DNA of 64,000 nucleotides from Marsupella aquatica (lineage: Eukaryota; Plantae; Marchantiophyta), in assembly GCA_973895155.1 (NCBI GenBank), contig OZ316896.1, positions 3,510,738 through 3,574,737 on the forward strand. Direction: 5' to 3'. The number at the start of each line of letters is the position of its first letter. Within the stretch, counting starts at the first letter, position 1. Below, in pieces: positions 29,021 through 62,327 of the stretch. The translations under genes and the position numbers were made by a program. Below the pieces are notes generated by a model. That model worked only from the letters and a program-made list of their open reading frames with translations, made no database searches and had not been told where the DNA came from.

Positions 29021-31496
29021 AGAAAGTCTTTACGGTGGACCCTTTGACCATGCGTTAGATCTACGTTGCATTAAGACCTCCAAGATGTCGGGTGAGTTGT
29101 ATGCGTACTGCCCGCACCACTCCCGATGCTGCCTGCCCGCTGCACAGCCCCGACGACAGTTAATGTTTTGCCACCCGCCCCACATCCGTCGATGGAAACT
29201 TTCCATCGATTTCAAAATGGGGCGGGAATGGTGGTGCGGTACAACCCCGACGCCACATGTTTTGTTATTGTTGTACCTGTGGTTTGTAATCTACTTTTTG
29301 TGTACCATGCATTCTGCCCACATGCTTTGCATTCTCCTTGATGGTCTATGCTCTATTTGTGCATGCGATTATGTGCACAAATAAATGCATGTACCAAGAT
29401 TTAGGGCCTGATTTAGGGTAGTGGTGGAGTTTACTCAATAGTGGAGCGGTGAGCGGGTTTGCATGGGCTTGGGAAGGATTACGACCTGACGTTGTTCTCT
29501 TAGCTTGTTTTTTATTCTGGTGTGAGCTGTGAGCTAGCACACTTCTCACTTCTTGCACTTTGCTGTAAGGTTTCAATCTATCTATGAGACTTTTGCATCC
29601 TTTTAATCTGGCAGTGATTCCTTGGGGTGTAGGGGTTTACGCACCACTGTCTGCATTTGCATTGATTGATTTGGCGATGATCTCTCTCTTCTATGCAGCA
29701 TTCAAGTGTAATGCAATGTTTGTATATTTTGTTCACTCGTAGGTGGCCAAAATATGCAAACATGTCATTTCAATGTCATGCTTTGGCTCTTAGTGTTACG
29801 GTTAATGTTTTGCTCGCCCAATATAGCGATTCCAGTTGTCTGATCTTAGCATTCAACCGGATTGTCATTCAAGGAATGTCGCGTGTAGGATGCACCATGC
29901 AGCCTCGGAAGAAGAAGCCCCTCGTTCCACCAGAGGTAGAATGGAGAAAATTCCCGGAGGCAAAGATGAACCAACATTGGATGAAAGCCAAGAACCCAAG
30001 CCACAGAAGAACGGGTGGTACAGGATTTCTTTGCAAAGTGATGAGCACTGACTCTTGCCAACACTTTGTGAAGCCAAGCAAGCATTTTTGGATCATATGC
30101 GAGCAGTGCATCGAATGAATCCAAGAGAGTGTCCTATCGGCCGTCCCAAAACATCTGCATGACAAAGGTATGAATCTTTCAAAATCCACACTCAATTTAC
30201 CATTCACACACTATTGGTTAATGTTTTATTGTACTTTCTATTCCCCTAAGTGGAAACGTCACTCTAAGGAAGTACGGGCTGAAAATCCTACTTCTCTGGC
30301 GAGCCACTAATATATGAGATCAGATGGACTTTCATCACTTTGCAAATGATCAAACATCTGATCACTAGCTTTTGCAGCAGAGTACGTGGGTTGGATTATA
30401 CAAGTGTATTGGTTAATGTTTTGGATTACAACTATGAGTCTCCTATGTTTTGGTTTAGATTTTTGATTCAAACAGTTTTTCCATTGCTTGCTTGTAGGAA
30501 TCCACCTGGTACAGCTGCCGTGGCACACAGCCGAGAATCGACTCTGGGCTCCTACCCTGGGCGGGTCTGGAAGCTGAAGCGCCAGCAGATGACATGGTTG
30601 TTACATTGGGCTCACAACCACAAACAGGCTCATTTTGACCAAGGCAACAGAGCGCTACAATGATTGGAGGGCCTCACAAGACTTCACCAACATGTTGTCC
30701 TCGGTGAAACAAAATGTCCTTGCTTTTTGGCAGAATAATAGTCCCAACTTGGATGTAGAAGAGTTGCAAGCTAAGGTATGTTTTGACATTCATCACCCTA
30801 TTCATTAAAACTGGAATTTCTCTAGTCCAGAAGTTGACCTTCAAATTTCTTATTTTACCCCCAAAAGTTCTATAACTTGTTCCCCAAAAGCATATATTTT
30901 AGTGGCCAAATATACACTTTTTGAGGTCTAAAATTACAATTCTAATGCCCAAATTATTAATTAAATAATTCAGTTATCAATTATTAATACTTATTAATTA
31001 AAAGACAATAAAGTGTTCTTATTATATACAATATAAACAATGAAAAAATAGAATAAGACAATATAATAAATTCAAATGACCCGTGATAACCAAGTTACAC
31101 AAACAGGGAAGGTAAACCAATGATGTATTATAAAAGTAAAAAACCTATTTTTACAGGGTCGAGACCACGTCTGCCCCAATGCAGGCTCTAGATGGTTTTG
31201 ACCGGTTGTTGAATGTATATCAATTACTATGTAAAAATCTATGTCGAGATTATCTCGACCCAAATGTAGGGTCCACATAATTTTGACCCGTTGTTGAATC
31301 TTTATCTCTAGCTATTCCCTTTGTATAGGGTCGAGACCCAAATAACCTTTTTCTAATCTGAACATATCTACAAGTAAAAGAGGATCAACAGCATCTAGAC
31401 TCAAATGGATAGTACGCATAGCTTCACTTATTTTTGAGTAAGAATATGTATATCTACAACTCACATTGTAACTGTTCAGTGTAGGGTCGAGATAAT

Positions 31497-32554
31497 CTAG
31501 ACCCAAATCTCATGCTCCTCCACCCCGCAGAATTCATTTGAGCAAGTAAATCTAGACCCTGACGGGTCATATTTCATATCATGATTGCAGAAACCGAGAG
31601 GCTTCCTATTCCAAAACTTCATGGTGAGGGCCCTACACCTCAAGACTTCCGAAACAAATCCCCGATGATTGTCTCTATAGGGTCCTGTGTACTGATATCC
31701 AATTAACATCTTTGCAAGGTCGTTGATCGCCTCCTCCGTCAATTCCTCCATTGGTGGTAATTGTTGCACTTCATTCTTGACATCCCAAGGAATTTTGTCC
31801 GCTATGACATCCAAGACTGTATGGATAACCGAATGAACCCATACCATACTACCCCACCGCTCCGTCAACAACGCATAAATGGCAGCCTGTTGATCTCTGT
31901 CCGCTAAAACATTTATCATAGACCACTTTGGATGATTGATAAAAAGGTAGTGCTGAAGATTGAAGGCATGATACAATTTCTTGAGCATAGGCCATAGTAT
32001 TTCTGGAAAGAATGTATCATCCGTGGAGTGATGCAAAAATGAGGAAGGAAACAACCCACAATTCTCTGGATTCGCAAATGCCTTCATTGGAGTGTCATCA
32101 AGAAGGAGTGTATTAGTTTCGTCGTATAATCCACCATAACGCTTCCAAACCACCCTCAAATCCTTCAAATGAATATTTGCCTTTCCATTGGTAATGTCAG
32201 GCCTCTGGATTCCAGTATCGAATGTATCTTCTTGTGTGAGAATAAACTTGAATTGCTCTCGCTCTTCTTGACTGAAGATCAAATGAATCATTTCATCCGT
32301 CCTGGGTTTCCTTGCACAAGTCCAAATGGCAACATCAAATAACGAAAAAGCTGCGATTAAGAACTCGTGAAGATGGGGTCGCTCAACATACATAAAGTTA
32401 AACCCTCCATGTCTCCCCCAGTGGACACCCTTGACACTTGTTGCACTACGGCGCAGTTCGGAACTTGGCGTTTTGACAGAATCCCAACACATTTTGTTGA
32501 GGTCAAGAATCAATAGCTTCCGTCTGATCGGACCGTGAAGTGGAGGCAAGGGTC
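31497..32554 (-). CDS. FCP1/NIF-family HAD phosphatase-like exon (probably the last exon of the ParB-MTase gene)
   Basis: RKLLILDLN, ERPHLHEFL...FDVAIWTCA, KDLRVVW and NTLLLDDTPMKAFANPEN motifs; acceptor TTGCAG at 32555 joins in frame to donor AG|GTATGA at 32659. Confidence 0.85.
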
Positions 32555-33345
32555 CTGCAAAGAAGGAACACCAATGTTAGAATTGTGGGAGATAAAACAA
32601 AGGAATGCTCGAGACGATCTTGAGCATCACAAGTGAATGAACAACAGTCAACGTCATACCTATTGTTGGTTGAAGGTCAGTAGTTGAAGAAATCTCAGGA
32701 CATCTTTGGAGATTATTGTCGACGCACTCCACAACTGGTAAGGGCCCGCCTTATGTGAAGGTAGACATAATAATTTAGACGGCTGAATTTCAGGACTGTT
32801 CAAACTAACTTGGGTTTCAACCTCACGTGCTGAAAGACCCAAATTCATCTAGAAGGTTATCTCCTAGTTGGTTTTGGATGTCCAAATTTATCCCTCCGGG
32901 AAGGGTCTCAACAAGAGCTGGCTCAGACCAAACTGGCACTAATTTGAACTTATCCTTCCTATACTTTCTAGATCGAATAATCTTCTCAGACTGCTCTATA
33001 CTGACTTGTTGACCTTTTGACGGTCCATCAGTCCAAAACATAATGAGTAGCACTTGCTTTGAGTGATTTGTAACCAGTTCTACCAATTTCAGTCCCCGGT
33101 TTCCTAACAAAAGGGAGAATTACGGGGCTTCCAATAGAAGAATCTGTGAAAACAAGCTTATTCTCTGAAGCGCAAAACATTTGGTCCAAGGGAGAGGACG
33201 ATGCACCTGCCTCATCCTGAGGGGGAGTATGGCAGCCACTAGCTTTCTTAGTAGAGAAAATCTCATCCAGTTGAGGAGGGTTTGGAATTGGTTGGCTAAT
33301 TGCATCCTGCAAGGTGGATTCCCAACCAACATCCAAGGTTGAAGA

Positions 33346-34400
33346 CTATTGTTCACGTTGTGCATCCCCAAGGTCACCCGATGAAGGAACACCTGGAACG
33401 TCGAGATCATCTCGAGCATCATTTCCAAATTCAGGCAGTATTTCACCCTCCTCTTCCATGTAGCTTGTGATTTTTGGGCCCTCCATTTTGCGATGCTCTA
33501 AATTCTCCGCAAATACTTCCTCATAAACACTGGCTTCCACCGGAGCTATGTCTAAGGCCGCCTCTTCTATTACAACAAGGGAACCGACAATAATTTCCTC
33601 AGATGGTAACAGCTCCTTGGGTGGCACATATAAAACCTGCTTGTTGTCATGAAGGAGCTGAGCAAAGGCTTCTGTGAATTCCATCTCTTGAGCTGTGTCT
33701 GAATACACAAAACAATCCCGACCAAGAATGACACAAGCTTTCAATGTCTGTCCTCCAGAGAAGAAATCCAACACTGTATGACCTGGGCACAAGAAATAAT
33801 CAACAAGATGCTTTGTCATTCGCAAAGGCTTTGCTCTCGGATTTACAAAGCCACCACGACGACTGACCATCTCATAAGATGGGGCCATCTTCTCCAAAAC
33901 TTCGACATCAACAGTGGATTCATCGAGCTTATCTTTCCCCTTTGATTGGTCTTTGTTGTTCCCAGTAGGGGCCTTCAAAGGCAAGACTGTGAAGTCTCTG
34001 TCCCACTTCTCACTGTAGTTCCAGAACGCATAAAAGTCATCAAAGAAAATTTGGGACCAGTCTGGTTCCTCTTCACAACAAATTCCCCCAAAGATGATTG
34101 AGTCTTGGCTCCAATGAGAAAATCTCCCTCCTCCTTGGGCAGCTGATCACGGTAGTAGCTCCCGTACTCCAGCTTCGTGTGGACTTTCTTCTCACGATGA
34201 ATCTTCTCAAAGGCACTCTGAATCTGGCCTATCAATGGGCCTTGACGGACAAAAAAGATTACTAAGAGCTCCGTCGAGTTCGCCATCTGCAAACAATACT
34301 CCAGCAAGACAAAAAAAATGGCATCTGTCCACTACCGTTGTCAAAGACGACCAAAATCAACAATGGAGAGTGGGCACGTCCTTTGCACCGAGTCAACAAT
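33346..34400 (-). pseudogene. Beta-class N4/N6 DNA methyltransferase-like domain (degenerate)
   Basis: C-terminal NPRAKPLRMTKHLVDYFLCPGHTVLDFFSGGQTLKACVILGRD resembles the HPTQKP...PGD.VLDPFxGSGTT..A..LGR SAM-binding end of N6_N4_Mtase; upstream CPLSIVDFGR sits at the expected DPPY position; stops and a frameshift are present. Confidence 0.65.
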
Positions 34401-34568
34401 CTCAGGCTTCATTGTCCTCATCAAATTATCGCTAAAAAATGTGCGATAAGGAGTATCCTCCATTGAAGGCAACCCGCCAAATACCTTGCAATATATTTGC
34501 TCAAGCCTAACAATGAGACTTTGCGGAAATGGGTCTTTTGGCCTATTTCTTTTTAGGAGGTTGGAAAT

Positions 34569-37500
34569 TCAAACCTCTCCAGCAAGTTGTCTAAGTTTCG
34601 GCAACTCACCACGATCCATAAATGCAGGCAAAAATTGAGTTAGCTCAAACCAAGTGAGTGAATTGGCAAACCGATCCGGATACTTCAAAACAAAGTACTC
34701 CACAATTTTTGCCCTCAGCTTGGTCATGACTTTGAAAGTATGAGCCATATCACTCATTGATTGAACATCAAATTTGTTGGCTGGGTCTTTCTTCAATAAA
34801 ACCTTCTGTTGTTGAACAACAGTAAAAAGTTTCAGAATGTCATCACTACTCAGGTCTCCTTCACAACATCTAAACAATGCCGGCGTAATCATTTTTGTTG
34901 TCCGGGATTTCCCATTTATTTTTGAACCTAACTCCCCTAGACCATCCGGAAGAAGTCCCTTGACCCAATCGATGCACATTTGTCTCCAAGTTCGGAAAAG
35001 GTTCTCATTCAAAAACAACAACCAAAAAATATTCCTTAGATAGGATTTTCTAGTCGTTATTTTGGCAAGGGCCATATAATCCTGATCCAAACAGTACAAA
35101 GAAAATTTGAGGCTCAAGACGATCTCGAGGTAGAATTAAGGAACTATGGTAAAATTTATGGGAGAATACATTCATGAAGATAAATCAAATACAGAAACTT
35201 GACCACGAGGCTCGAGACAATCTCAAGCTAGAAGTGGATTTGAGGTCGAATATACCTGGAACTTTTGATGATCCGTTAGTCTATTGGACCCAATCACGGG
35301 TCTCTCCCGACGGCCACACTCATCAAACTGTCGACGGGCATGGACCATAGTATCAAGAAAATAGGACTCATACTCCATGGTCTTATTAACAGCATTTGCC
35401 CTTTGTGAGTGTTGAGCAAGTATTGTTCTTGGAGTTCTGTCCGAAAGAATTCGTGACTTTCGATATTGCAGACTCTTCGCAACCTCCTTCAACTTTGCAT
35501 CGCTCTTAGCCCAACCTATGATCCAAACAGCTGCCTTTGCCGAGTGTTGTCCACTGATTGCAAGGAACTGCACCTTCTTATTCTTAACACCCCACTCGAA
35601 CTCCTTTCGATCCTCAGCAGTATTCTCATAATGGAGCAACTGCAAACTCTCTCTTGAATATGGAATTAAATCTGCCATAGCTAGTACCATTCCAGGGTTT
35701 CTAACCATGGATTTTGCGACCTCCATGGCATGGTCTTTATTGAACATCCTATATACCAAAATTGCAGACGGCGAATCTATACTAGTGACAGGAATGTCAA
35801 AAGTTTCATTCATGCCAAATGTGTAATACTCCTCAATCTCCTTAAGAACTTTGGCTCCTTCCTTAATGCTCTTTTCTCCCGGAGCATCTCCTGGAGTGCC
35901 ATCATCATCGGTATGTGCATTCACACCCGAGGAAGATGCCGGAATGAGATCTACTTTGGGCGGCGCGGACTTTTTTTGAGGTGGAGCCTTCTTCGCTTTG
36001 CTTTTGGGTTTCTCAACCCTCTTCCTCTTTTGAGACACCTTTGCTTCCTTTTTGTCCAAACCGGACGTCTTGTCTCCCGCAGCTACAGATCTCAATTTAC
36101 CTGTTTGTCTTCGATGAGACAACACCCACTTTTTACAAGCATCCTCGTCAAATTCTCCGGCTCCAAACACAAAATCAGGGGATATGGATTCAAACTCCCC
36201 CAATTTGGATTCCGATATTAGTCTCAAAACCTTCCACGTGAAAGGAGTCGTGAATGCATCATCACGATCAAACCCATACTTTCAACAATAAAGGAATCCA
36301 AAAATTATGTCCGCTCCAGATATAGGAGTATCTTCTAGTAAATTACTTGTAGTAAAACCCTCGGGGAAGAACCCCATTGATATCACGCTCAGTTGTTTTC
36401 TGGCTGCACGTTCAATGTTAAGATCGCAAGAGTAGTTTTTGGCGTGAAGTCTAATTAGAGCTCACTTCCCTGTCTCGTAGTTTTCCACTGTCAAAACCAT
36501 GTCCTTACCGTTACTCGTCACAATAGAAACAACAGGCCCTAGAAGGCTGCACACTAGAGGATCGACTGATGGAGACCTTGTCTTCACACAAATAATTCCT
36601 TCCATGTCTTCAGTTTCAGCAAGCTCAATGGCCCAACAGAATCCAAATAAACCTTGTCCAGGGCAAGAAACCTCGATTGCATGTTCATCTTCGACTACCA
36701 AATTAGGCGATCCCAATTTCGCACCTGGGACAGCCAAAATGTAGCAATTGTCATAAACATGTACTACAAAACCAAGAAACAAATAGGTGGCTCGAGATGA
36801 TCTCGATCTTCCTTCTAAGTTTAATAGTCTGACATGTTCCAATGCCATTTCATCCGTGGAATTTAAAAAGAGATTTCAAACCCAAGAAATCTAAAAAGAT
36901 AACTCAATAGTTAGGAAACACAATAGGCTCGAGATGATCTCGAGCCACCATCTGTTTAAAAGATCTCGATCCTCATATATATCAGTTGAGGTTTTATTCC
37001 ATTGCATATCATGAACCAGTCAAATTTAACGAACAACATTTTCAAGAATGATCCAATGTCACCTATTCGACCACATTCAAAACCCTCTAACTCAGTGGTT
37101 TGTCATCTTCACAAACGAGTTGGAGGACTAAGAAAGTGGTCCAAAAGGCAAGCTTGGATCACAATGAAAAGGATATTAGTAATTGACGACATGGAGTCCT
37201 TCCAACTGGAAGAAATTGGCCAAGGGATACGAATGACCATAAAGGAAGATGGTGAGGGATATATTTGGCTCGAGACAATCTCGAGCCTAACATGTCAAAC
37301 GAGTGATCCGAATATCATATTCAATAATGAACATCATATTCAATCAATGATTAAAATCCACTTTCTCCATTGACTTCTGATACCCACAAACCCGTTCGGA
37401 TGTCAATGATCAGAACGAGTTGGAGGGTATAGAAGTCCTTGGAGGAAGGAAATTTTAGATATTGTTTCACTTTGGAAGGATAAGGGTTTCCAACTTGAAG

Positions 37501-37871
37501 AAATCTCACTAGGTCACATGCAAGAATTGCATATTGGCTTGAGACGATCTCGAGCCTCATGCCACTGTCTTACATCAAATGCAAAATCAATTGATAGATC
37601 ACAACTTTTGAAGCAAAGTATTGCAGAAAACATCAATAGGCTCGAGATGATCTCGAGCCTCAACTGCATCCAAGGAATCCAGAAACAAGTGGACCAATTG
37701 AAGCTCGAGACAATCTCGAGTTAAACCTGAACAGAACAAAGATGATGAATTACGTTTAATGGTGTGATGGATCTGATGCGCTGAGTCTAGATGGGTCTGA
37801 AGCTCTTCGCCAATGGTTGCAAGGTTGTACTCAGCAAAGTCCTCCTTGGAGAAATCTACAACAGCCGACAT
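34569..37871 (-). pseudogene. N-terminal exons including a ParB/Srx-like domain
   Basis: FDIPVTSID...YRMFNKDHAMEVAKSMVRNPG...FLAISGQHSAKA resembles the ParB-N/DGQHR motif; intron 35082-35255 joins FQ|DYMALAK in frame; further fragments extend to an ATG at 37871 (their membership in this gene is uncertain). Confidence 0.6.
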
Positions 37872-39243
37872 GGCTGGTGAAGAGAGGAACGTACTACGGG
37901 CTGAGAACTTAAAAACAAATCTTGAGCCTAAGCAGAATATCTTGACCCTATAGAAGCTCGAGCTTAAACACAAAATCTTGACCCTACAAAATATTGAGGA
38001 AAAAACCTAATCTCGACCCTATGCAATCTCGAGGCTAATACAAGGATCTCGAGGCAAGAGCGCAAAACAATCTAGAGGCAAGGAGGCAAGGGACGCGAGG
38101 AGGTGAAGAGGCGAGGAGGCGAATGTGAAAATGGGGAATTCAAAACCCCTGAAGCCACTATAAGCCCCTCGGGGGTCGGCCTTGGCCGTGCCAAGCGTGC
38201 CAAGGCTCGTGCAGGCTCAGGCAGGCTGCCACGCAACCTGTTGGGTGCGTACAATCATTATTACGGTCACACATGTTGTCATTATTGTTATCTGTACTTC
38301 AGCCCTGCCGTGAGTTTAGCCGTGACACAAGTTCAACGAAACCGTCTTATTGGCCTTTCTGTCTGTCAGGGTTTTATATATTGCTTGTCTTTGGTCTCCA
38401 GCGGGTCATTCTTCTCATTTCGTTTCATTGCTTGCTCGTTTCTCCCTCTGCCTCTCTCTCCCTCTCCCTCTCCCTCTCTTTGGCTCTAGATTTCTGCTCT
38501 GATCTCTTTCTGTTGTTCTTTTCAAGGGTTGTGGACTCTATGTTTGTGTTTAGGATATTTCGAGAAATTCTCATTTTAAGCCCTGAAGGAGGTCTAAACT
38601 AATTGAGCTCCTATCTTTTAGAAAACCAAACCTTTTCAGCTTATACTCTAGTGTCGGTCAAAATCCATTTGGAAGCCTGTTCCCTCTATTTGATGGCCTT
38701 TTAGAAGCTATTTCTCAGTGTCTGGAAGTAAACTAGGAGCGTACTTTCTTAATTGCACCAAATCATTCCTCTAGATCATCTAGAGCAATTTATATGTTCT
38801 TATTTTGGGTTTCTTATTATTCATAATAGTTTCTTTGTCAAATACAATGTCCTTTTTGGCTCAAGATCATCTCGAGTCATAAGTTTGATCCTCAAACTTA
38901 TTCACTTTTGCCTTCTTTCTAATGGTGCATTCGGTTTTCCTTCTTATAATTGAGTTTATAGAGAGTCGGAGGTATAGAATCTAAATTTGCTATTCAGTGA
39001 GATTTCATATTTTACCTCGAGATTGTCTCGAGCTAAATACTTCTGAATTTTTACATATTGGAGTTTTTGGTCCCTCTTCTACCTCGAGATTGTCTCAAGG
39101 TAGAAGAGTTTCTTATTTTCTCTATCACATAATTTTGTGGGATAAACTTCTACACTTGGGTTTTTTGGTTTGTTTTTGTAGTCACTTTACCTCGAGATCA
39201 TCTCGAGGTAACTACATCCAACTGTTTGGACCACGTTTTCAAA

Positions 39244-42931: not shown

Positions 42932-42956
42932 GTCAAATATTTTTTAGTAGTCACTC

Positions 42957-43047
42957 TGTCAGAGTGAGGGAGTCTATGTCATTTAGTTTGGAATTAGACA
43001 TGTCAGAGTGAGGGAGTCTATGTCAATTAGTTTGGAATCAGACATGT
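42957..43047. repeat. ~44-bp tandem duplication
   Basis: TGTCAGAGTGAGGGAGTCTATGTCA.TTAGTTTGGAAT.AGACA occurs twice. Confidence 0.85.
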
Positions 43048-47600: not shown

Positions 47601-47715
47601 AATTTATCGCATTCTGCATTCCTCAGTTGCATTCCTTTGAAGAATTGAATATGTTTGAAGAACATCAAATAGAATTATAGGAGTGAGCAATCATTCCATA
47701 TACTATATTCAAGGT

Positions 47716-48005: not shown

Positions 48006-48075
48006 TGCAAAGATTGACCTCGAAGACATGACTTCTACATGAGTTGGGCTAAACGAGAAGTGTGTCTCCGATAGA

Positions 48076-49180: not shown

Positions 49181-51134
49181 TTTGTCCGAATTCGTGTTTC
49201 AAATATTTCTAAGAACTCTTGTTATATTTGCTCTTGTGCTTTGCTAACTTCTCCTCTCCAATGCTTGTGCCTTCCGATGCTCGTTTAGCAATGTTGAGAA
49301 TTTTCTTCAATAATAAAAAAGTTTAGAACTTTGCTAGATTGATAGCGATAAATTTATCGGGTTCAATATTCAAACACTTGATTCGATTACCATAATGTTA
49401 AACCATGACAGCGATAAATTTATCGGGATAAGTATTCAAACTATTCAAACAATATATTCACTCACAATTACCCAACAAGAAGCATTGGAATCCTCAACCC
49501 GGTAAAATTATCGGGAGTAACACACAGGATTAGAAACTTACTCTTTTCTGCTTCTTGTTCCTCACCCGAAGATTGAAAAATCCGTCGTTGAATGTGAGTT
49601 GAATGTGGCGACTTGAATGCCGAGTGCGATACACGTATCGGTTGCCAGATACCCTCTCCATAACCCGGGATGGATGGTCTGAGGCGACGTCTCAGACCTA
49701 AACGTGGGATTGAAATTTTCTCAATTCTTGGCGATGGAACGCTCAAGAGACGACGCTTCTTAGGTTTATTAGGCGACACATAGTAAGAACTGGGCTTAGG
49801 ACCAGAACTTGCATCAGAATCCCAATCAAAGTCAAAGATTTCAGGCACAATCTACTATATGAGAGAGGTAGAGCTTTAGGGATGCAACTTGGCAAAGAGC
49901 AAGTGACAACATTAGGAGAGGATTTTAACTAAACTTGAAGGTGAATCTGTGTCTGATTGAGACATGGTTATCCGAGACACTATGGGGCTTTGCATTACTC
50001 CCTCAATCAGGGAAAACTAATGGCTCAACGGACAAAATATTGCTCCAAGAACACAACTCCCAAAAATCTACTATGGATAATGATGCCAAAAACTTATCGG
50101 TGGTGGCCCTTTTATAGTGTCTGTTGACGGGTGGCCCACGTGGCCACTTTTGATTGGTCGTCGCCCTAAATGACAAAATAGCAGAGAAGGGTATATTTCT
50201 TGGATTTCCAATTTCATTCTTACACGTGCATCGTGGCAAAATTATATAGTTTTGAAATTTAACCGATAAATTTATCTGATGTTGGTATTGCAAAAAGTGT
50301 TTCCTTCATATGGAAGTTGAAATTTTGAAATTGAAGCGATAAATTTATTTAATGTTGGTATTGCAAAAAGTGTTTTCTTCAGATGGATAGTTGCAATTTT
50401 GAAATTTAACCGATGAACAGAAGGATCTTAGTATTGTTGGCAAGTATTTTTGCCGTTCGTAGTTTTTGTGATAATTTTATCGGACTGCGCATTGTTGTTG
50501 AAATAACGGCATGTTGACTATGGTCACTTGCGGGAGGTAACTATGGTCAATTGCGGAGGTAACTGCAAGGTAAGTTTGACCAACCGTGCAATAATTTCTT
50601 ATCGACTGTGATGTAAAATAGTTACGGTAAATAACCAAAAACTGAGAAAATTGAGATTGGGTCGGAACTTTCATGGTTGAAATCCAGAGTCCGATATAGT
50701 TATCGGACTTTGCTCAAAATGTGGTTATGGATTTCTAGATAAGACCTTTCATATATCTTCGGAGAGCGTGAATATGAGGTTCAGGTGAAAGTTTTTCGTA
50801 TCTAATTTTCCTTGATAAATTGTATGTTTGTGAGCATTAATTTCAGTGGTTTTGAACATTCCTGAATTTCTTGATTCAATCCGAACTTTGATACGGATTA
50901 CATTATTTCCCCCAAAACTTGTTTTTGATTAAAAAAACCACCGATTTTGTGAGATTTGGCGGAAATTGAAAACACACTTCTCGTTTGCGGAAATAGTTCT
51001 CGTTTGCGGAAATAGTTCTCGTTCGGTCGGAAATCGTGTTAACTCATCATGGTTTTTGCTCCTAAAAAATTTTCCATTGCATATTGGATATTTGTCTCCA
51101 AGTTATGGTGTATGATTTGCCATTAGTAGGCAAC

Positions 51135-51435: not shown

Positions 51436-52422
51436 AAGTGCCTATTGGCAACACTGAATACAATGAATTTAATTTAATTGGATGTCATCGGTCCTAGCCT
51501 AGTGAGCACTCATTACTACTGTCCCAACTTTGACTATAATTAACTCATCAAGGTTTTCTTTCCAAAGAGTGTAAGACTTACTTTTTGTTTTGTCGCACAA
51601 GTCTTCAATGATGAATGGTTCTATCCCAAGGCAATGTCCCCGTAATAGATAGGTACCCAATGGACAAGTCATGGTTAGTGAGTTTTGCCATTATAAAGTA
51701 CCCGATGGACGAGTGATGGTTTAAGGTTTGCCATATTCTCTATTCAATCACACCTTGATCCAAGAGATTTTCAGATGAGATCTGATGACTATGATGAGTG
51801 GATTGTACGAGGTTACTATAAACGACTCAATACAAGTAGTGGCACAATTGTATTATTGGAAACACTGCAAAATGGAGTAACCTCTCAAAATCAGGTAACA
51901 CAAGCATCTTTGCCTTTATGATTGACAATCAAAATTACATTGAGGGTATCGGCACTTCTCATTGCTCAGAGATTTGGCACATTGCGAGAGAACATCCAGC
52001 TACGTTAGCACAAGTCATAATGCAATTGGATGAACGATTGAGTAAACTTTGTGATGCTGTAAAGACATTCTATGATAAGGCTTACTCTCAAGAAAATCTT
52101 CAACATGTTCCAGCCCGAAGTTCTGGTTCTGGCATTTATGAGTCACCGGCAACATCTTTGTATATCAACACCCGGTTTCATAAAGTCTATGGCAAAACAA
52201 ATACTGGGGTGCTCATTCCAGTTGAAGTTTATGATAGCATGGTAATGAAACACCAGCTTGATCCTAGATGCTATCAATTGTCTACCACAAAGGTAGGCAA
52301 TCGTCTTGTTCACCTCACACATCAAAAAAGGGTGAAAGTATATGCAAAATACTTACGGGCGGCCAATCGGGGCAAAGCTTATACTTGCATTTACCTTCAA
52401 CATCCACACGGGCATCCACATT

Positions 52423-54320
52423 CTAACAATCCTGAGATTGTGAAGGGCAATGTTGAGAGACCACCTCTTCAGCTGGAGTGGCAGTGTCCGTGTCATCATG
52501 AAGTGCGCTCAGTTGTTGTCTATTACAGTCTTCCAATTCTGCTTCATGAATAGTATCATTGTTTTTGCCAACATTGGCATCTAGGTGGTCAATGCCACCC
52601 ATGAGGCTACCAAACCTGGTCCCTAGTTGTTGAACCAAGACAGCACCTTCACAACCTCTAACTAGCAACGCCTTCAGCTGGTGCTTGCACATGTTTCCCT
52701 CGTCAGCCCATTTACAGCAGCATGAAGGAAAGTTGGAAAAAATATTATGAACAATATAGTCTTTCCCATTGGGTTTCAAACTACTAACAATGGCCTGGTT
52801 GGGCAATGTTGGATTTGGAAAACTAACTTCAGTTGGTGGTCTTTCATTAGGTGTTGTGCCAAGGTTGTGAAGACTATTGAGGACTATCTCCTCTTTCCTG
52901 TAGTTGATGAATCTCCCCCTAGTTTTGCACCATATTTGGTACCAAAAGAAAGGGAGCATGACATGGAATAGAGAATTGACAACCCTGTCTAGGCGCAAAG
53001 CTCCTATGGACCCAATATCCCTCTTTATCATCTTCTTCAATGTCAAATGCCAAGCCTCAATCGCACCATTTGTGTTTTGGTTGGCACGAGGCATGTCTCG
53101 GACAGCCCTCATCCACTCGCCTGTCATTCCACAGACACATAATAACATCCATTAGTGGTAAGCATGAGGAAACTGCAAAGAAGCCTACTTTAGTCATTTC
53201 AAGGGACAAATGAATATGACGTATGCAGAGCATTAACCTGTTCTGTGCATCCAAGTGTCTTCAAAAAAAGCCAAAAACCGTTGTTTCGTGTGATATTTAG
53301 CTTGGAAGAATCGCCACTTGACCTGCATGTCTTCCTCAGTAATGGCGTACATGAGATCCCCAAGATCATCATTCATAGCTTAGAGGAGCTTGGTTCTGTT
53401 TGGTACAGTCTTGATTAAGTTCTCCAATCTGGTTTGTCCGCTAGTGCTCTATCCTTAACTCCCTTTAAAAAAATGCCAATTTGATCTGCTGATTCAGACT
53501 GCTGGATGCACCATGCTATGGGTAATCCCCATCTGGTGTTTGTCGAAAGCAACAAGGGTGAAGAAAGGGAACTACAACAGGACCAAAGGTCAGAGGCAAA
53601 CTTTAACTCAAAGTTAGACAGAAAAAATGCAGGACTTCCACCACTGTACGGGCAGTAGGGCACAAAATGCAATGAAATTGACACAACGGAATAGGTTGAC
53701 AGAGCAGAATGTTAGTCATAAGAGGCAAAATCCAATCAGATAGACACAACATAACAGGTTGACGAGGCAAATTAAAGCTTAACCATAAGATGCTAAATGC
53801 AATCACATGGACACAACAAACAACTTAATGCAGTCACGTTGGCAAAACCTTAACCATAACACCTGATATAGACATAACAGAAGAGGGTAACAAAGCGCAA
53901 CTTGAACTACAAAACACAATATATATGAAATAGATAGGGATAACTAAAACATGCCAAATGCAATTGATTTACTTAAATTGCTTACCCCGTATTTATTAGT
54001 TGCAAATGTGCTATCCAAAGTCAACACTGATCCATGAGACAGGTTTGTCATTTGTGCTCTTTGCCAAGGTGACTGCAATGAAAGCATGAACTCTTGCTTT
54101 GGAGGGCCCTCCATGTACTCTCGAGAGAGTAGCACTCGCTCAGGATATAGCCCTATCCATTTGCACATTGATGCTTGGTCATTGTCTGCCCATAACCAGG
54201 TTTCCTTGTCAATTTTCCTTTTGAGGTTTTGGAGGTCTTGTTTAGAAACCAGGTCATCTCTTCCATCGAAAGTCAAAGTGATGTCTGGCCGGGTCAGTGA
54301 TATTGTGCCCTCGATCATGG
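52423..54320 (-). pseudogene. MULE (Mutator) DDE transposase with SWIM zinc finger, decayed
   Basis: LQSPWQ...VLTLDSTFATNKYG (first D), GLPIAW, NTNGAIEAWHLTLK (E) and SWIM CCCKWADEGNMCKH; GT-AG introns; frameshift and an apparent deletion around the second D. Confidence 0.85.
54183..54320. repeat. 138-bp direct repeat, copy A (copy B at 62328-62465), flanking cassette 2
   Basis: TGTCTGCCCATAACC...GATCATGG is near-identical at both sites (2 substitutions seen). Confidence 0.95.
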
Positions 54321-57300
54321 TAAAACCAACCGGTAGTCGGGAATTCCCAGTAAAATGGAGTTCAGGACAATGATCTTCCTTCAAAGATTGTAGCCCAATA
54401 AGGTTTGAGATTGAAGGATCTTCAGCGCTAGATAACGGCTTGAATCTTGGATCCTTTGGGACCTTTCCTTTAAAAGAAACCCGACAAACTATATCCAGTC
54501 TAGAGTGAAGACCTGCAAAAGTTGACAAACCAACTGGATTTTAGAAATCTGTTATTCATGAGAGAAGACCTACTAAGAAAGAAAGTGTAGCGCCGGGCGC
54601 TAGTATAGCTCTACTCAGAGAGAACATTTACCTGGACATCTGTCTTGGATCTGTACATTGGGACAGACATGAAAACATTGTGCGTATTGATGCACATGAA
54701 CTTCTTGGATTACTGACATGCAGAAATGACCTGGGAAATCTGATCGTGGTCATCCGAGTATAAGATAGCGAGCATGCCGTCATCGGAAAGGAAAGGGTCC
54801 ATCGCCAGAAAGAATGATTCGGCTGCTGTGTGATCTGTGACATTCCATTTCGGGACCCGACGGTCAACAATTGTGGGTTTCAAACCAGTTCCAAGGGAGA
54901 TAGATGAAACCCGCATTCACCCCAAATGATCGTTCCTTCCCACCTCAAATGATTCCTTTATCTCTACACCCGGATTTGATCAAATCCTTACCCCACTTCT
55001 CAGTGTCTGAGACCCAATCTGGCTTCTCTTCCTTACTAAATGCACTATCAATGAATTCTGCCAAGCTTGATTCGACCATACAGTGTCTTCCGAGTTTAGT
55101 CTTGAAAGTCCCCACATCCCATTGGATACCGGCCCCAGAAGCATTATCTCGCGACGATTCCCAGACATCGATGGTCCTTTTATTCTTCTTCTTCTTTGTG
55201 CTTGTAGCATCCATAGGAACTATAACCTTCCCCTTCTCAACGGGGGTGATGGGGTCTGGATTGGCACCAGTGTTGGCCTCAGGGACTTCTGGTGTTGCAT
55301 CGACTTTTGTGTCATCCGTGGTGGCATCAGATTTTCGACCACCTACCAAAAAATGGTGTCAATCACAGAAATAGTGTTAGCGCCAGGCGCTGACTAAACA
55401 CCCACATTAATTTTGGGAAATAAGACACATTAAACTTACAACACATGATAGCGCCAGGCGCTAACAAAGGAGGAAGTCGGAAGAAGGAGGTGTAGCTTAC
55501 GTTTTTTCCCAGACTTGGCACTAGCACTTGCCACAGGGGAATCCGCCTTGGCTTTGGCTCTTGGATTTTGGCTTCGATCAACATGAACCACTGTGGTTTC
55601 GCATTTTTTTGCAACTCAGTCATCAACGAGTTGACATCCCTCTCAATTCCTTGCTTCATGTCGGAGACAAATTGTCTCGGAACTTGGGATTTAGACAGTT
55701 TATGGAAAGCATCCTTCTCAGTGTCGTCAAAAGGAGAATCCCATCTATCGGTGTCAAGGTACCAAGGGCAGTGAATTCTCTCCCACTCGGAAAATTTCCT
55801 CGGTGGAAGTATACCCTCAGCGGGATACATCGAATACAGTTCGGCCAAAATGTCTCCATCTGCGCAGATGACCCAATTCTGGAAAGTAGCTGGGTAAGCC
55901 CAAAAATAGTCAGGCTTCACAATCTCCATGTGCATGAAGAAACGATAGACATATCGTTTCGCGTGCTTTTGATTCTTGAGTGTGTAGTCTTCCTTGTCCG
56001 GGTACTTGGACATCCACATCGTATTGAAAAACTTACCTTTCACTGCATCCCCAATTTTTTTGAAATCATTGCACACTATTTCAACGAGTGAATCATAAGA
56101 CTCACACTTCCATTCCTCCAATCGATTGGAAGGAATTATTTCACTGATTTGCTGGAGGGCAGTCTGCAGCATACCAATGGCAATTCCCTCCACGCTATTC
56201 CAAGTTTGCCAAGTGTGGCACCACTGCTTCACAGGGTCATCGCTAACGCTTTGCGGATGAAAGAACTGCTTCCTGAGCTCTGGCGTGCAATGCGCTACTA
56301 ACAAAGTGCTCCTCAATTTGGGGTCGAGGGCGGAGACTGTTGTAAATAACCTGGCATGATCCATGGTACAGACAACCGCATCCGGTTTCTTCTCGTGTTT
56401 GTTCACCTCTATCATCGGATACATCTCAGCATAGGTTGTCATGAAGTCTTCAAACTCAGGACTCAACAAGGGAGTGATCTTTGAGACCTTGATCGCCCAA
56501 TCCTTCGTTGCTTCTTTCATCATGACCGCATGTCGTTTGGATGTCTCTTCTTGAGACCAAGGATTTCCCTGAGCGGTAGCCGACTCCATGTCCATCTTGA
56601 ATTGTCGAGAATAGGATTTAATCTTATTCTCGCATAAGATATACATAAGTGCTTCTTGAGGCATTTTCTTGGAATACCATGATCGTTTTCGAGTCTTCTG
56701 CATCACCTGCCTAAACTTCTTGAAGTTTGCCCCATCGATGATTGATTTGTAGTATTCTAGATCGTTGGACAAAATCCTCTTAATTCGGTCTGCATCAAGT
56801 ATCCAGGAAGGTTCCACCACGGCCTATCCAAGTCTACAGAAGAATTTGTCAGTCAATAGCGCCAGGTGCTAGTAAAAACTACACTATAAAAGATAAGGAT
56901 AGGTGAAATTCAAAGAGAGACTTACTGGTTCATAGTATGCATAGTCGCCTCAATTTCAATCAAAGATCCCTTTTCACCCTTGAAGATAGTACATTGCACA
57001 CGCGGGTGATACTTGCTATCTTCCGGATTTTCTTTCGTAACGATCGACCATGCGTAAAGTCGATGGTTACCGTCAAAAACCCTAAAACATCTTATCTTGT
57101 AACACCATGAAGTCTGGATCGGCCGCACATTCAGCTTCAAACTTCTCGTTCTTGGCCACCCACACAGGGTCCCAGGTCGCTCAAATTTCTGGAGTACACG
57201 TCTGGACATTCCCATTCGAATCTGCCGGCTGGACATAGAACAACATTCCGATTTTTGAGTTGTATCCTGTGCTACAAAAAGAGTCCTTCAACTTTTCAAT

Positions 57301-57575
57301 TGAAGGACTTCCCTTCTGTAAGGTGCGGACAACTTCCATGTGAACCAAGCGGCACATTGGAATCCTTGGGGGGTCTTTGTTGTGCCCTCAAAAATCCTTG
57401 CCAAACACCATAACGTGCTTGGAGATAACGTTGGACATCGTCAATGACAGTTCTCCTCGATTTTCCACAGCGTATGTGTCAAGATCGTCCATCTTTGCTC
57501 TCCTGCTCTTCGGAAATGTGACTACCGCGACTGTTTCAAGATCTTGGGATGCTGTAGACCGTGTCACACGACGAC
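54321..57575 (-). pseudogene. Second ParB-like gene with a degenerate MTase-like region, truncated at 54321
   Basis: RIPMCRLVHMEVVR...IEKLKDSFCSTGY...FYV...W...FRVFDGNHRLYAW (ParB-N, frameshifted); 485-aa helical exon; IVDRRVPKWN...AMDPFLSDDGMLAILY resembles the motif IV-VI region of beta-MTases; introns at ~56832-56925, 55343-55500 and ~54512-54630. Confidence 0.65.
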
Positions 57576-58626
57576 TGTAAACAGATCCAGAAAACGAGCA
57601 CTCGGATGTCTAGGAATGGATCTGCTCTCTCTTCCTGTTAGCACTATACCCATGCGAGGTGGTGGGGAGAGGGTCCATGTTTCGCACACACGAAGTGCTT
57701 CACGATCGTGATGAGTACCTCATTTGTACCGTACTTCTTCTAGAGAATTCTTGCACGAAGAACCTCCAAAACGGAGCCTAAATACAGCGGACAAGGGAGG
57801 TGGGGAGAGTATCATCTCTAAACTATCCACTCGCTACATTGATATCTATTTACGACATTCTCCTGAGTGCCACTTGTCAATTTTGGATTAGTGGTTTAGA
57901 ATACCGTTGGCATATCTTCAACGTTACGTGACCTAACGTTACTGTTGAATATGACCGTTAAAGAAGAGTTTGGTTATTTTAATCTATATTCCTAGGTCAA
58001 ATCTGATATTGGTCAATGGTAGCGTCTGGCGCTACCCAAATCGATCAATATTTAAACCCTAAATTTTCCCTAAGTTAGGCCAACATTGACCTTTAAGTAT
58101 AAAATAAAAAACAAAATGAATACAATTTTTGAATATTTTGCCTTAAATGAATGTCATGATTACCGTTTCAGATTAGCGCCCGACGCTAATATTAAATAGA
58201 TAATATTTGGAAAATAGCTACAAACATTAGGATTTATTCTGAAACCCCGGATAAAATATTCCAGTTTTATACCACAATTTAGGGTGTGGGTTTGAGTAGC
58301 GCCTGGCGCTAAACATATATTGAACCATTTTGGGTCCATGTTGGAGTGAGGATGTTTGAGTAGCGCTCGACGCTACTCAATTAAGATGATTTAATAAACA
58401 TGATTATGGTCTTCGTAAACGGACATCTTTAGGCTCATTAGTGTAAATGTCGTTGACATAACGACAAAAAACATTTATTGTGTCAGATGTGCTTTCGACC
58501 GGTAGTGATTCTGCCGTATTCTAACGGCTCTGACAAACGGATTATTGACTATGAATACCATTGTGTGCATTCGAAGACGTCATTCATTATTGTGAACTGA
58601 GTGTTTTTGGGTTGGATGATCTTACA

Positions 58627-61600
58627 ATGTCGAGGTCAATCGTTCTAACGCGTCCGTCTACGGGTGACCTTGTATCCATTCCATTGTCGGCCAATGACGT
58701 ATACAAGCAAGTTAGTGAGAATTATCTCTGTGGGCGCTTTGGTTTGGATTTGAATGACATTGAGGACATTTTGGAGGAGGGAAACGGAGATGAAGCCTCT
58801 AATTTCACTGCTTCTTTTGATGTTGATGATGGGATTCGTTTTTGGCACCTGAATGCAGGAATTCGGTATTCTATTGTCATTTGAAAACCAGTCGCATCCG
58901 ATCTCCCATCTTCATCCAAACCCTTTGTTGATGTTGTCTTGCTTTCAGATAGAGACAATGATGGACCTTCTGGTTTGCCTGAGTCTAGTGCTAAACCCCC
59001 TCACACAGTTGTTAAACAGGAGGTTACCCCTGTTAAACAGGAGGTTAGAGCAGTTTTTACCAAAAATTCCATTGTGTATCGGAGAAGTGCAATGGATACC
59101 ATTCTTAAGTCAACTGGTTCCAGTGAAATCTCGAGGTTCATCGCGGCTGGGGACTTCTGCCATGAACAAGTCGGTTGTTTGCCAAAGAAATACAATGGAA
59201 ATATTGTATTCGAGTTGCCTCCTGCGGGAGCTCTTTCAAAGGGGTCACGTCTACGCGACATGGACCGGTCGAAGGATTGCTACATCTGGACCAGAATATT
59301 TCCTACATCAGCTAATGTTCATCCCAAGAAATATTGGGAATTTGGTAAAGTAACGTGCACTGGTTCCATTGAGTGTAGGAATAATACTTGCGACTATTTT
59401 TGACAGAAGAAAATGAGGAACCAGAAGGCCTGGGGTGGAACCCCCAAACTTGGCGGGCAACATCGTGTTGGCTCCTTCATTGATGAAGATGGAGTTGTTT
59501 GCCAATTTTGTGATCAAGTTCCGTTTTGTGTCCAATCTTGTCCAGCAAGGTTATTTTACATGTACCCCCAGGTTCTAGTTGACTCAGAAACCTGTACTCA
59601 CATGTCCCGCTTGGCAATTCATATGGGGATGCACAACCATCCTTCAAGAAAGGTGTTTTCTCAGAGCGCAGAGAAGATTGTTGAGGAGGTTATCAAAAAG
59701 AAATTGGAAGGAAATCCAATTTTCACTCCTGCTGGTGTAAAAAATGTGGCGACAGGGTCTTTTGTAAAGTCCTTGTGTGAAAGTGTGGAAGATATTCAAG
59801 ATATTGAAGAAACCGAGATATTTGAGTCGCTCATGGTAGTTTCCACATCCCAGAAGTTTGCGTCCCTCTTTCGTAGTGTTAGACAGGACCAGAAAGGTCG
59901 AGGTGAACTAGATTTTATTGTTCGGTATCAAAGAAATATCAACATGAAGAAAAAGGTTGGCCTCTTTGAGGCATGTGAAATGGACCAAAATCGAGCTATT
60001 TCTCAGGTTGCTGCTTACACTGCGTATCGGAAAGGGTTGGATAGAGGAAAAGGTCCTCGGGGGGGTCACTTCCACGGAAGTGACACATCACGTGCGACGA
60101 AGTATAGGCCCATTTAAATGGGTGTGGCGGAAGACTTCCAAAGTTTGGTGGAAGAACACATAGGGCATGTTTTATTGATTGGTCGACTTTAAAGAACACA
60201 TAGGCCTATTTAATTGCAAAAAATACTTTCTATAAAGTTTTTAGGGGTTTTTTAATAAAAAATGACAAAATTTTAAGAAAGAAAGGGCTTTGCAAAAAAA
60301 TATTTTTCACTTTAAAGTTAGGGGGGTCAAACCCTAAAACGTCGCACGCGATGTATGACCCTCCATATAGTGACCCCCCCGAGAAAAGGTCCAACAATTT
60401 GGGAACTTGCTTTCCAATCAGCAGACCAGGCAGGCTCCCCCAAGTTGTATGAAGATGCAATGAATATGCTACTGTCCAACGCTGCCAAGTTTGAGTTGGA
60501 GAGACGTGCACCTCTCAATGGAGACGTTGTCACCAAATCTTTGAAGAGGAAAGGACATGCTTCTGGGAATATCTCGCCACAAGACTCCCGTAGGCATGAT
60601 AAAATCCTTGTCACCTCGCCCAATACTAGATTGATGAAAAGGAAGAATCTTAATCGCACGACGTTTGATGCTATCCCTAGCCCCACGCCTCAAGTTAATC
60701 CTGTTGTTAATCTGTCTGGAAGTGACATTTCGGGCGGTGGAGAAGATGTCGATTTCAATACCCCTCCTGCTCAAGACCGAACGCATTCAACGAGGCTTCC
60801 CCAGACTGCTCCCTCCGTGCTTCAGCAACCGTTACAAGAGTGTCCTGTCCGTGAGACCGAGGTTGCTCCAGCTGCATGGCAATTACGTCGAACTTCAAAA
60901 TTTGGCGCTGTTTCTCAATGCAACGGATCATTTTCCCGTAATTCTGAAAGAGATGAGTGTCACAATCGCGTGAAAAAAGTTGGATTTCCCTCACCACATG
61001 GTGTTATCGGCGTTGTTGTCAAAGGACAACGCATTTTCAGGGGGGAACCCATAACCAAAATGATTTGGTTTTGCCCAAACAATACATGTTACAGAAGCCG
61101 CCCTCGTCAAGGTGTATTGAACCTGCCCCCTTTCCCGGATGTTCTTCCCGTTTTGAAAGGGACAAATGTTTCGGAAGACGAGCTGCAATATCTTCTTGAC
61201 AACGGAATCTCCCTAGTGCGCGGAAATGAACGTACAACTACACCCCCGTCATATTTTGATCTTCGAATCAATGTCAATATCTTTCCAGAACATGTGAATC
61301 TTGTCGAACCCAATGTTCGTCTCCGAAGCCGGAATGGGAGGAATACGGTTCCTTGGTCAAATCTTACCCAGGGTCACATGAACAGAATTGTGTCTGCAAA
61401 AAAAGAGACGATGTCCATTCAGGGAGAGTGGGATGTTGCGATTGGGAATGCATGGGGAAAGCAGTTTAAGGTGCAAACGCACGAAAATATGCGGACGCCA
61501 AATTGTTACTTTGTTCAAATTTGCATTTTCCCCACTTGCTCGTGTGAGGATTTCTACCAGTGACATTCTCGGAAACATCCATATATGCCTTGCAAACATT

Positions 61601-61725
61601 TGTATTGGATTTTCCTTACCATTTTCAAACTAGACGTTGAGGAATCTACATTGACCAGCCAACCAATTCTCACTGTTGGAGAGGTTCGGCTCATATTAGA
61701 GAGGCAAAATGCTCATGGTTTATAG
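58627..61725 (+). pseudogene. Transposon-type gene with GCM/WRKY-like zinc finger and C-terminal SWIM finger, split by a MITE
   Basis: CTGSIECRNNTC...CQFC...CPARL...HMGMHNHP (GCM-like); YRKG...GKGP|TIWEL is rejoined by removing the MITE; YFVQICIFPTCSCEDF...CKHLYWIF (SWIM); several in-frame TGA stops. Confidence 0.65.
60056..60383. mobile_element. MITE, same family as 44042-44337 (opposite orientation)
   Basis: TIR CTCGGGGGGGTCACT/AGTGACCCCCCCGAG; perfect 8-bp TSD AAAAGGTC (60048-60055 / 60384-60391); subterminal ATCACGTGCGACGAAG shared with the first copy. Confidence 0.95.
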
Positions 61726-62327
61726 CATGAATCATGATGATGTAGGTTGTATTATCGGTCCAAACGGTTATATTGATTTTGTCGTATGTCAATGGAAAAG
61801 TGTTATTTATGTCGCATCATGTTTTGTTAGCGCCAGGCGCTGATAATTTTGTCGTTTAGGCTACACCGTTAAATATCATCGTGTTGTGCTTGATGTTCTC
61901 AACGCCAACTATTTGTTTCCTTAAATACCGATAAGATAGCGCCAGGCGCTAGTCAAGACGTTGTTCGCTTTTATTTTGGACCATATAATACCATAAAGTT
62001 TTGGGATGCATTCATTTTGTATTAATTTTATATATTTTGTTGCCGATTGTGGTGGGACCTACCATTTTTGTGCGCATTCCTTGACATTTTTATGTATGCT
62101 CCCCCTTGTTTGTGTTGGGATATGAGGTTCAATTATTATGTGGTTTAGCGATTCATGACATGGTATCCTCCCTCACCGCAATGGACTAACTCCAACTTAA
62201 ACAATTCTAAACTCCTGATTGTGTGTTCTTTCCCCTGGTACAAGATGTTTTTTCCTGGTAACAGCATAAGGCAAACAGGAAAAGTATTTGTTGTTTGCCT
62301 GTTTGCTGTCTCGGTCGCTATACCCAA

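Follow-up and report, generated by a model that had tools for sequence, protein, structure and literature searches.

Private palindromes and opposite-strand accessory genes in two neighboring, decayed DNA transposons of the liverwort Marsupella aquatica: a candidate self-recognition system

We analyzed a 64,000-nucleotide stretch of the Marsupella aquatica genome (GenBank assembly GCA_973895155.1, contig OZ316896.1, positions 3,510,738 to 3,574,737; here, the window, in whose own numbering all positions are given). Its genes have GT-AG introns; germin-like genes are found in its first half, and its second half contains nested transposons. Two of the transposon cassettes share a layout in which a plus-strand gene is transcribed divergently from a minus-strand gene (here, accessory genes 1 and 2), and each cassette is studded with its own short palindrome (P1 and P2). 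An earlier reading made from the letters alone (here, the sequence-only reading) had described this layout and the pseudogenization of both copies, and the stops and frameshifts are as it described them. The true ends of the first cassette (element 1), a NIF/HAD domain behind its methyltransferase (MTase)-like region, and a third palindrome (P3) were not part of that reading. The features of the two cassettes are as follows.

30792..43814: element 1, Sola-like DNA transposon of 13,023 bp, dead copy of a multicopy family
30792..30816, plus strand: left terminal inverted repeat (TIR) of element 1
31497..32554, minus strand: NIF/FCP1-like HAD domain with DLNKM replacing DxDxT, likely last exon of accessory gene 1
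33640..34430, minus strand: beta-class MTase-like region of accessory gene 1, motifs X and I recognizable, motif IV not
34572..35081, minus strand: helical region of accessory gene 1 after the ParB domain, candidate DNA-recognition region (helix-turn-helix-like)
35256..36770, minus strand: main exon of accessory gene 1, with an unnamed N-terminal domain, a basic linker, and a predicted ParB/Srx-fold domain (about 35816-35256) with the motif ISGQHSAKA
39247..42931, plus strand: transposase pseudogene of element 1, three repeated N-terminal domains and then a DUF7869 core
43592..43776: subterminal CCCAAATRTA repeats at the right end of element 1, with a weak counterpart at 30876-30939; unrelated to P1
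43790..43814, minus strand: right TIR of element 1
54400..56833, minus strand: later exons of accessory gene 2, with a 441-amino-acid (aa) region without matches and, by eye, a possible MTase N-terminal half; 3' part missing
56926..57700, minus strand: first exon of accessory gene 2, ParB-like piece with DGNHRLYA; stops and a frameshift
58630..61725, plus strand: plus-strand gene of cassette 2, resembling GCM and SWIM by eye and broken by a small repeat at about 60050-60384

When gapped palindromes are counted without bias across the window, P1, P2, and P3 stand out. P1 is CTCGAGAnnnTCTCGAG, with 6 perfect sites and 17 sites at two or fewer mismatches, all within 31243-40242; an 18th site, at 31486, has three mismatches. 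In 30 first-order Markov samples, 0.2 P1 sites at two or fewer mismatches are expected per window, with a maximum of 2. P2 is TAGCGCCnGGCGCTA, with 4 perfect sites and 10 at two or fewer mismatches, all within 54588-61951, where the same samples give an expectation of 0.0. The approximate numbers of the sequence-only reading, 18 and 10, are thus recovered, and so is its claim that each palindrome keeps to its own cassette: across the whole window, neither occurs outside it at two or fewer mismatches, and only at three mismatches do strays appear, two of P1 (21723 and 54109) and one of P2 (9650). The sites are distributed as follows.

31243..40242: P1, 18 sites, at 31243, 31486, 32608, 33400, 35113, 35211, 36791, 36928, 37269, 37538, 37641, 37704, 38769, 38860, 39016, 39083, 39191, and 40226
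54588..61951: P2, 10 sites, of which 4 are intronic (in three accessory gene 2 introns), 4 separate the divergent genes, and 2 follow the plus-strand gene

Most copies lie in introns or intergenic DNA, as had also been claimed. By the gene models built in the present analysis, 16 of 18 P1 sites and all 10 P2 sites are noncoding (26 of 28 together), while coding DNA makes up about 67% of cassette 1 and about 72% of cassette 2; the avoidance of coding DNA has binomial p values of 1.6e-6 (P1) and 2.8e-6 (P2). One or two sites fall in each of three accessory gene 2 introns and in each of at least two accessory gene 1 introns. The P1 spacer is itself constrained, with only four spacer types, Y-R-A on one strand. 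If the palindromes were neutral filler that local duplication had spread, or if a host factor bound them, the common flanks or tandem arrays seen for some P1 and P3 copies would be accounted for, but the flanks of most P1 and P2 copies are unrelated, the sites stand singly in separate introns spread over 9 kb (P1) and 7 kb (P2), and each motif is restricted to one element; we regard this explanation as very improbable.

The ends of element 1 are imperfect 25-bp TIRs with three mismatches, flanked by a 4-bp target-site duplication (TSD), ATTC, at 30788-30791 and 43815-43818. TIRs together with a 4-bp target duplication characterize the Sola superfamily. DUF7869, which Pfam detects on two transposase pieces (E 1e-7 and 3e-21), is a domain associated with Sola, and element 1 is called Sola-like on the basis of the 4-bp TSD and this association. 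In translation, the N terminus of the transposase (39247-40200, plus strand) consists of three unnamed tandem domains of about 70 aa, reminiscent of plant CACTA accessory domains; one piece of this repeat domain was searched and has no Pfam or PHROG match. In contigs of four public DNA runs, element 1 is covered far more deeply than its left flank; in run X1, contig depth is 25 to 29 in the left flank and 404 to 2352 in bins lying fully inside the element, depth not being equivalent to copy number. Other copies have sense codons at four of the stops in the accessory gene and, where one P1 site of the window copy is damaged (35116), the consensus letter, indicating that the window copy has decayed and that the gene and the motif of the family were once intact. 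The transposon context proposed for both cassettes therefore holds for element 1, with its TIRs, TSD, multiple copies, and DUF7869. For cassette 2, the GCM label was given by eye: its plus-strand gene has no Pfam match for GCM, its SWIM match has an E value of 0.24, a DDE core is not recognized, and a TIR search of the cassette returned nothing.

The ParB-like domain that had been proposed for both accessory proteins has its support in accessory protein 1. A search with a 190-residue core gave 62 matches at E values of 0.001 or less among cluster representatives. Alignment A1 comprises the window piece and 45 of the 62 matches (46 rows); 16 of the 62 were left out, namely, P0045 and P0062 (two Trichinella DNase II matches judged to be spurious), 12 short or partial matches, P0027, and P0051. 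The named sources among 20 relatives looked up are the liverworts Calypogeia fissa (P0008) and Riccia sorocarpa (five proteins), together with one spurious nematode match. An AlphaFold2 model of the core from 46 sequences has a predicted local distance difference test score (pLDDT) of 91.5. Its leading Foldseek matches are Noc (E 7e-4), ParB, PadC, and sulfiredoxin (Srx), and ParB, Noc, KorB, and Srx structures fill the top 12 rows. VIA-align places PadC first (Z 7.8, root mean square deviation [rmsd] 3.2, 98 residues aligned) and gives KorB a Z of 7.6, with all of the top eight rows of ParB/Srx fold; since the Z values stay under 8, it is the agreement of the rows that carries the case. As a prediction from models, a ParB/Srx fold for the N-terminal domain of accessory protein 1 is well supported. 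By sequence, Pfam finds no ParB_N match in the 46 rows of A1 (DndB appears in two rows at E 0.04), and sequence searches of the PDB with alignments A1 and A5 returned only noise.

The motif GxxRxxA forms the cytidine triphosphate (CTP) pocket in ParB, as stated in PMC10419367. In the element 1 family, it reads GQHSxxA, with Arg in none of the 46 rows and Ser in 44. The CTP-dependent clamp suggested by the sequence-only reading is thus unsupported for this family, and cassette 2 alone keeps GxxRxxA. The helical region that follows is conserved in P0008, P0054, P0055, and the locus L001 and resembles the ParB helix-turn-helix by eye. In a model of P0008 (pLDDT 70), residues 114 to 267 align with KorB residues 151 to 252 at Z 4.5 (rmsd 3.9, 97 aligned), a match that ranks third among unrelated rows and is within noise. 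Locus searches with alignment A2 retained 2 of 82 pattern matches from metagenomes as loci, none of 16 from viral contigs, and none of 5 from prokaryote genomes. Word-indexed homolog searches, which are weak as negatives, found nothing for the MTase piece of element 1 and only P0054 itself when P0054 was used as the query.

The MTase-like region of accessory protein 1 is matched by Pfam N6_N4_Mtase (E 2e-5, below the cutoff), by a PHROG profile (3e-7), in the atlas (0.94), and by M.RsrI (E 0.02). Its motif X-I half scores 24.8 bits against a profile of 56 phage enzymes; the N-terminal half goes undetected with the same profile (1.2 bits, equaled by 4 of 300 shuffles). Thus, of the beta-class MTase-like region claimed for both proteins, the motif X-I part stands in element 1. 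An active N4C/N6A MTase that is guided by its ParB part to the palindromes and writes a protective mark there, the strongest form of what the sequence-only reading had proposed, would fit this likeness as well as the annotation of an Ectocarpus protein as an N4C/N6A MTase in the text of PMC12477816, and the frameshifted putative motif IV region of cassette 2 does not allow a judgment. However, the catalytic motif IV, D/N/S-PP-Y/F/W ([DNS][PLI]P[YFW]), is absent from every minus-strand frame of both accessory genes, whereas all 56 phage MTases, chosen for having such a motif, carry DPPY, DLPY, or SPPY. Motif I is one residue short (FSGG for FxGxG). At the likely motif IV position, by a register set by eye, DFG[RK] or DFAR stands in the window copy, L001, and the Riccia protein P0054, and its presence in three independent sequences makes the noncanonical motif a trait of the family. 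We therefore consider active methyl writing quite improbable, and the claimed DNA-modifying activity finds no catalytic motif to rest on. The serine at the CTP-pocket position and the missing catalytic motif make accessory protein 1 more likely to be a binder than a methyl writer. Downstream, the HAD domain is recognized by Pfam NIF (E 5e-17) and NCBIfam HAD-IIID (5e-14). Continuous frames and splice sites indicate that it is probably fused as the last exon of accessory gene 1, and with DLNKM for DxDxT it is possibly inactive.

Accessory gene 2 is less well supported. Its protein retains GxxRxxA intact (GNHRLYA at 57071, minus strand); its ParB piece has no match in Pfam or NCBIfam. An MTase in cassette 2 is not borne out: there is no profile match, and motifs X and I are absent from the window copy, in which the region is frameshifted and the 3' part is missing. 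Nor is any homology between the two accessory proteins supported, as hhalign detects no similarity between them (probability 0.2%). Relatives of the cassette 2 exon did not appear in a word-indexed search, a weak negative, or in a locus search (0 of 6). At its 3' side, accessory gene 2 runs into a fragment of a Mutator-type transposase.

Within the cassettes, the sites cluster in the introns of the accessory genes and around the promoters rather than at the element ends. If a ParB-fold protein bound the palindromes for the sake of transposition or autoregulation, either bridging and compacting a long element for the transposase or repressing the divergent promoters as plasmid KorB does, one would understand why KorB is among the best structural matches, why the sites are densest at the divergent promoters (36791-39191 and 58020-58361), and what binding might achieve in elements as long as 13 kb. 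On the other hand, no P1 site occurs in the final 3.5 kb of element 1, which leaves one end unmarked, sites are also found in distal introns 5 to 7 kb from the promoter, and a repressor does not predict the CpG trend described below. We judge this role to be unlikely.

A second alternative makes the transposase, or its repeated N-terminal domains, the palindrome binder and the ParB-like gene an independent cargo. Every cassette does pair its own transposase-type gene with its own palindrome, P3 has a Mutator-type gene nearby but no identifiable ParB gene, and according to a 2026 preprint (10.64898/2026.08.24.746577), a Mutator transposase itself activates cognate copies sequence specifically. 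Yet the subterminal CCCAAATRTA repeats of element 1, beside its TIRs and distinct from P1, are candidate transposase sites, and unrelated plus-strand genes would have had to converge on the same design of perfect palindromes dispersed in introns; on this evidence, we find a transposase binder unlikely.

CpG content was analyzed over 30.8-62.3 kb with the palindromes masked and three nested inserts left out. The observed/expected ratio falls from 0.65 in DNA up to 1 kb from a site to 0.33 farther out, and when the sites were shifted circularly, 1 of 125 shifts equaled this trend. Within the coding DNA of element 1, the ratio is 0.58 near and 0.33 far from sites (p 0.018), and beyond 2.5 kb from the promoters, it is 0.55 in the accessory gene, which bears palindromes, and 0.33 at the transposase end, which has none (p 0.045). 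As a feature of the sequence, CpG retention near the sites is suggestive, and no more than suggestive, of past protection from CpG methylation.

The reading that we prefer, and hold tentatively at a little under even confidence, is that the accessory protein binds the palindromes of its own element and keeps that element unsilenced by occupancy or recruitment, and not by writing N4-methylcytosine (4mC) or N6-methyladenine (6mA). That the accessory protein is the palindrome binder seems to us reasonably probable; granted such binding, anti-silencing would quite probably be its purpose. The nested, now broken DNA transposons would each have carried their own palindrome in noncoding DNA, and the opposite-strand protein, with its predicted ParB fold in element 1, would have bound these sites so that the DNA was kept free of CpG methylation and silencing. 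A dimer might recognize both half-sites by means of the helical domain that follows the ParB domain. In the element 1 family, the MTase-like part may serve as a noncatalytic DNA-binding or S-adenosylmethionine (SAM)-binding module, and the ParB part may not hydrolyze CTP. Protection, whether by occupancy or by recruitment, would be analogous to that by VANC. Besides the coding avoidance, the consensus letter in other copies, the placement of the sites, the ParB-fold matches, the CpG trend, and the published algal and VANC parallels, the following observations favor this reading: the motifs are conserved while most flanks differ, the cassettes with unrelated plus-strand genes have in common only an opposite-strand ParB-like gene and a palindrome of parS size (15 to 17 bp), and the subterminal repeats of element 1 are separate from its palindrome. 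For binding and methylation, the argument draws on sequence, a structural model, and analogy.

Several results weigh against anti-silencing through palindrome binding. Codon-boundary CpGs of the promoter-distal accessory gene and the distal transposase do not differ significantly (0.39 versus 0.28, p 0.25), so that part of the CpG trend may reflect proximity to promoters; host-gene DNA at 15-27 kb has CpG ratios of 0.56 to 0.89 without palindromes; and CHG shows no trend around the palindromes. Six of 17 P1 mismatches are CpG transitions, and the sites of the present copy were thus probably methylated at some time. The homologous intron of L001, a 44%-identical relative, contains no clear P1-like site. 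A Foldseek search with the P0008 model of the helical region returned nothing, leaving the helix-turn-helix undemonstrated. The sole profile match of the first exon of accessory gene 2 is the ParB-like phrog_1033, at E 0.13, and a ParB assignment for that protein is weakly suggested by this match together with its one motif. Finally, no ParB gene is identifiable near the P3 cluster; it may have been deleted or never have been present.

P3, CGATAAATTTATCG, occurs between the two cassettes, with 11 sites at one or no mismatch at 47502-50277 (expected 0.0). Its surroundings hold the following.

47502..50705: P3, 15 sites at two or fewer mismatches, several of them in a 56-bp tandem array at 47713-48005
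49471..49965, minus strand: 5' exon remnant of a gene, surrounded by P3 sites, no significant profile match
51697..52450, plus strand: gene fragment with an Fpg/Nei-like H2TH match, downstream of the P3 cluster
52426..54320, minus strand: Mutator-type transposase pseudogene, 3' part, with a SWIM finger (E 0.03)

The Mutator label is given by motif pattern. The H2TH fragment matches Pfam H2TH (E 0.0018) and NCBIfam fpg (E 0.002), and all four of its PDB matches are of NEIL2/Fpg type (E 0.5 to 1.4), all below curated cutoffs. An alternative in which 51840-52640 would be the 5' half of the Mutator gene in inverted orientation was dropped in favor of this match, and fragments of the P3 region that resembled a ParB gene by eye gained no support on testing. 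We found no literature description of a palindrome such as P3 paired with an Fpg/Nei-like gene; if the pairing is true, a transposon-borne DNA-glycosylase-like gene beside the P3 array would be a candidate base-excision de-silencer. A wider reading, which we consider doubtful, is that bryophyte DNA transposons of several superfamilies have in common a modular, bacterial-derived anti-silencing kit, made up of a ParB-fold reader, a private palindrome per family, and interchangeable effectors: a pseudo-MTase and a C-terminal domain (CTD)-phosphatase-like domain in element 1 and possibly an Fpg/Nei-type glycosylase with P3. If that were so, the two-fold CpG retention would be a fossil footprint of protection, and one genome would naturally contain several mutually orthogonal epigenetic de-silencers, each addressed to its own sites.

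Other features of the window are recorded here. Three germin-like (Cupin_1) host genes are 78 to 86% alike in DNA.

9322-10149: germin-like gene
22311-23072: germin-like gene
26135-26893: germin-like gene

Element 1 sits in an intron of a low-copy spliced gene (29870-30775 and 44620-47000, plus strand) with a zinc-finger-like start and an acidic middle, which is CpG poor. Tandem arrays have units of about 87 bp at 14113-14809 and about 102 bp at 51131-51436. The P3 tandem array is enclosed by a 26-bp inverted repeat, GACACACTTCTCGTTTAGCCC, at 47106-47131 and 48041-48066, with related sequence near 50970; these repeats are possible ends of a small nonautonomous element. Another high-copy repeat is present in part as an inverted duplication (92 to 96%), at 43995-44633 and, inside the P3 region, at 48466-48807. 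A repeat of about 300 bp has two diverged copies (72%) in opposite orientations, at 44041-44340 and 60053-60384; the first of these (44.0-44.3 kb) falls in a bin of very high coverage, and the contigs of all four runs skip it; the other interrupts the plus-strand gene of cassette 2. Mutator-type coding sequence of 141 bp is directly duplicated (98%) on the two sides of cassette 2 (54180-54320 and 62325-62465). In L001, the intron at 697-830 contains one imperfect AT-rich inverted repeat around AGACAATTGTCT, which may be due to chance.

According to a bioRxiv preprint (10.1101/2025.02.11.637652), VANDAL/VANC of Arabidopsis is the sole known case of a transposon binding and de-silencing its own sequence. 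As PMC5735166 describes the system, it resembles ours in having family-specific motifs in introns and intergenic DNA (a specificity judged for our motifs within the window only), an accessory protein, and loss of methylation, which in the window is deduced only from CpG content; it differs in that its motifs are 9-bp, nonpalindromic, and in tandem arrays and that binding has been shown experimentally. No VANC-type domain was matched in any window piece scanned. With bacterial ParB, Noc, and KorB (PDB 7ol9, 7bnk, 6ryk, and 8qa8), the window shares the N-terminal fold as predicted, the size of the palindromic site, and, in cassette 2, GxxRxxA; unlike them, the element 1 family has Ser for Arg, no ParA, an undemonstrated helix-turn-helix, and a eukaryotic, intron-containing gene. 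The beta-class amino-methyltransferases (M.RsrI and phage MTases) are similar in the motif X and I region and in how these motifs are ordered, at the domain's C-terminal end, whereas element 1 lacks D/N/S-PP-Y/F/W and has the shortened motif I. ParB-helix-turn-helix-fused adenine MTases of chlorophytes and fungi, as reported in PMC4738411, have a different architecture.

The closest counterparts are algal. In the main text of PMC12477816, Sola1-1_Ec32 of Ectocarpus is a giant Sola element with an opposite-strand gene for an 1104-aa ParB-like and N4C/N6A-MTase-like protein, for which self-binding and self-modification are proposed. The likeness of element 1 to it is one of architecture, a transposase together with an opposite-strand ParB-like/MTase-like gene; Sola1-1_Ec32, however, comes from a brown alga, its main text makes no mention of palindromes, and the element 1 protein differs in having no recognizable catalytic motif and in seeming to end in a NIF/HAD domain. 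In red algae (Bostrychia and others), Plavaka (EnSpm) elements carry the accessory genes PAG2/PAG3, which encode a ParB-like domain and an MTase of PF01555, and inverted-repeat arrays beside the ParB gene; this cassette moves among transposon superfamilies, and self-binding by PAG3 is proposed as a hypothesis (bioRxiv 10.1101/2025.02.11.637652). There, ParB is fused to a 2-oxoglutarate oxygenase and the MTase to SET, in separate genes, whereas element 1 has both parts in one gene, and the Plavaka repeats form tandem arrays, whereas the window sites are mostly single and intronic. The interpretation given by the sequence-only reading is partly supported here, and its self-recognition idea is not new, having been stated for PAG3 and for Sola1-1_Ec32. 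The design is already in print for algae, and the window holds a land-plant variant of it. We found no land-plant description of such a system in the literature, and the supplements of the algal papers may already show palindromes or plant members. What is new is the land-plant setting, the apparently noncatalytic form, the presence of a different private palindrome in each of the adjacent elements, and, tentatively, a CpG footprint. ParB accessory genes were proposed in 2025 in algae as a second self-de-silencing system, and the window extends the design to a liverwort. In at least one clade, our analysis suggests, the system operates with neither methyl transfer nor the CTP-pocket arginine, and the choice of assays shifts accordingly; two or three differing palindromes in neighboring elements make specificity testable by cross-binding within one genome.

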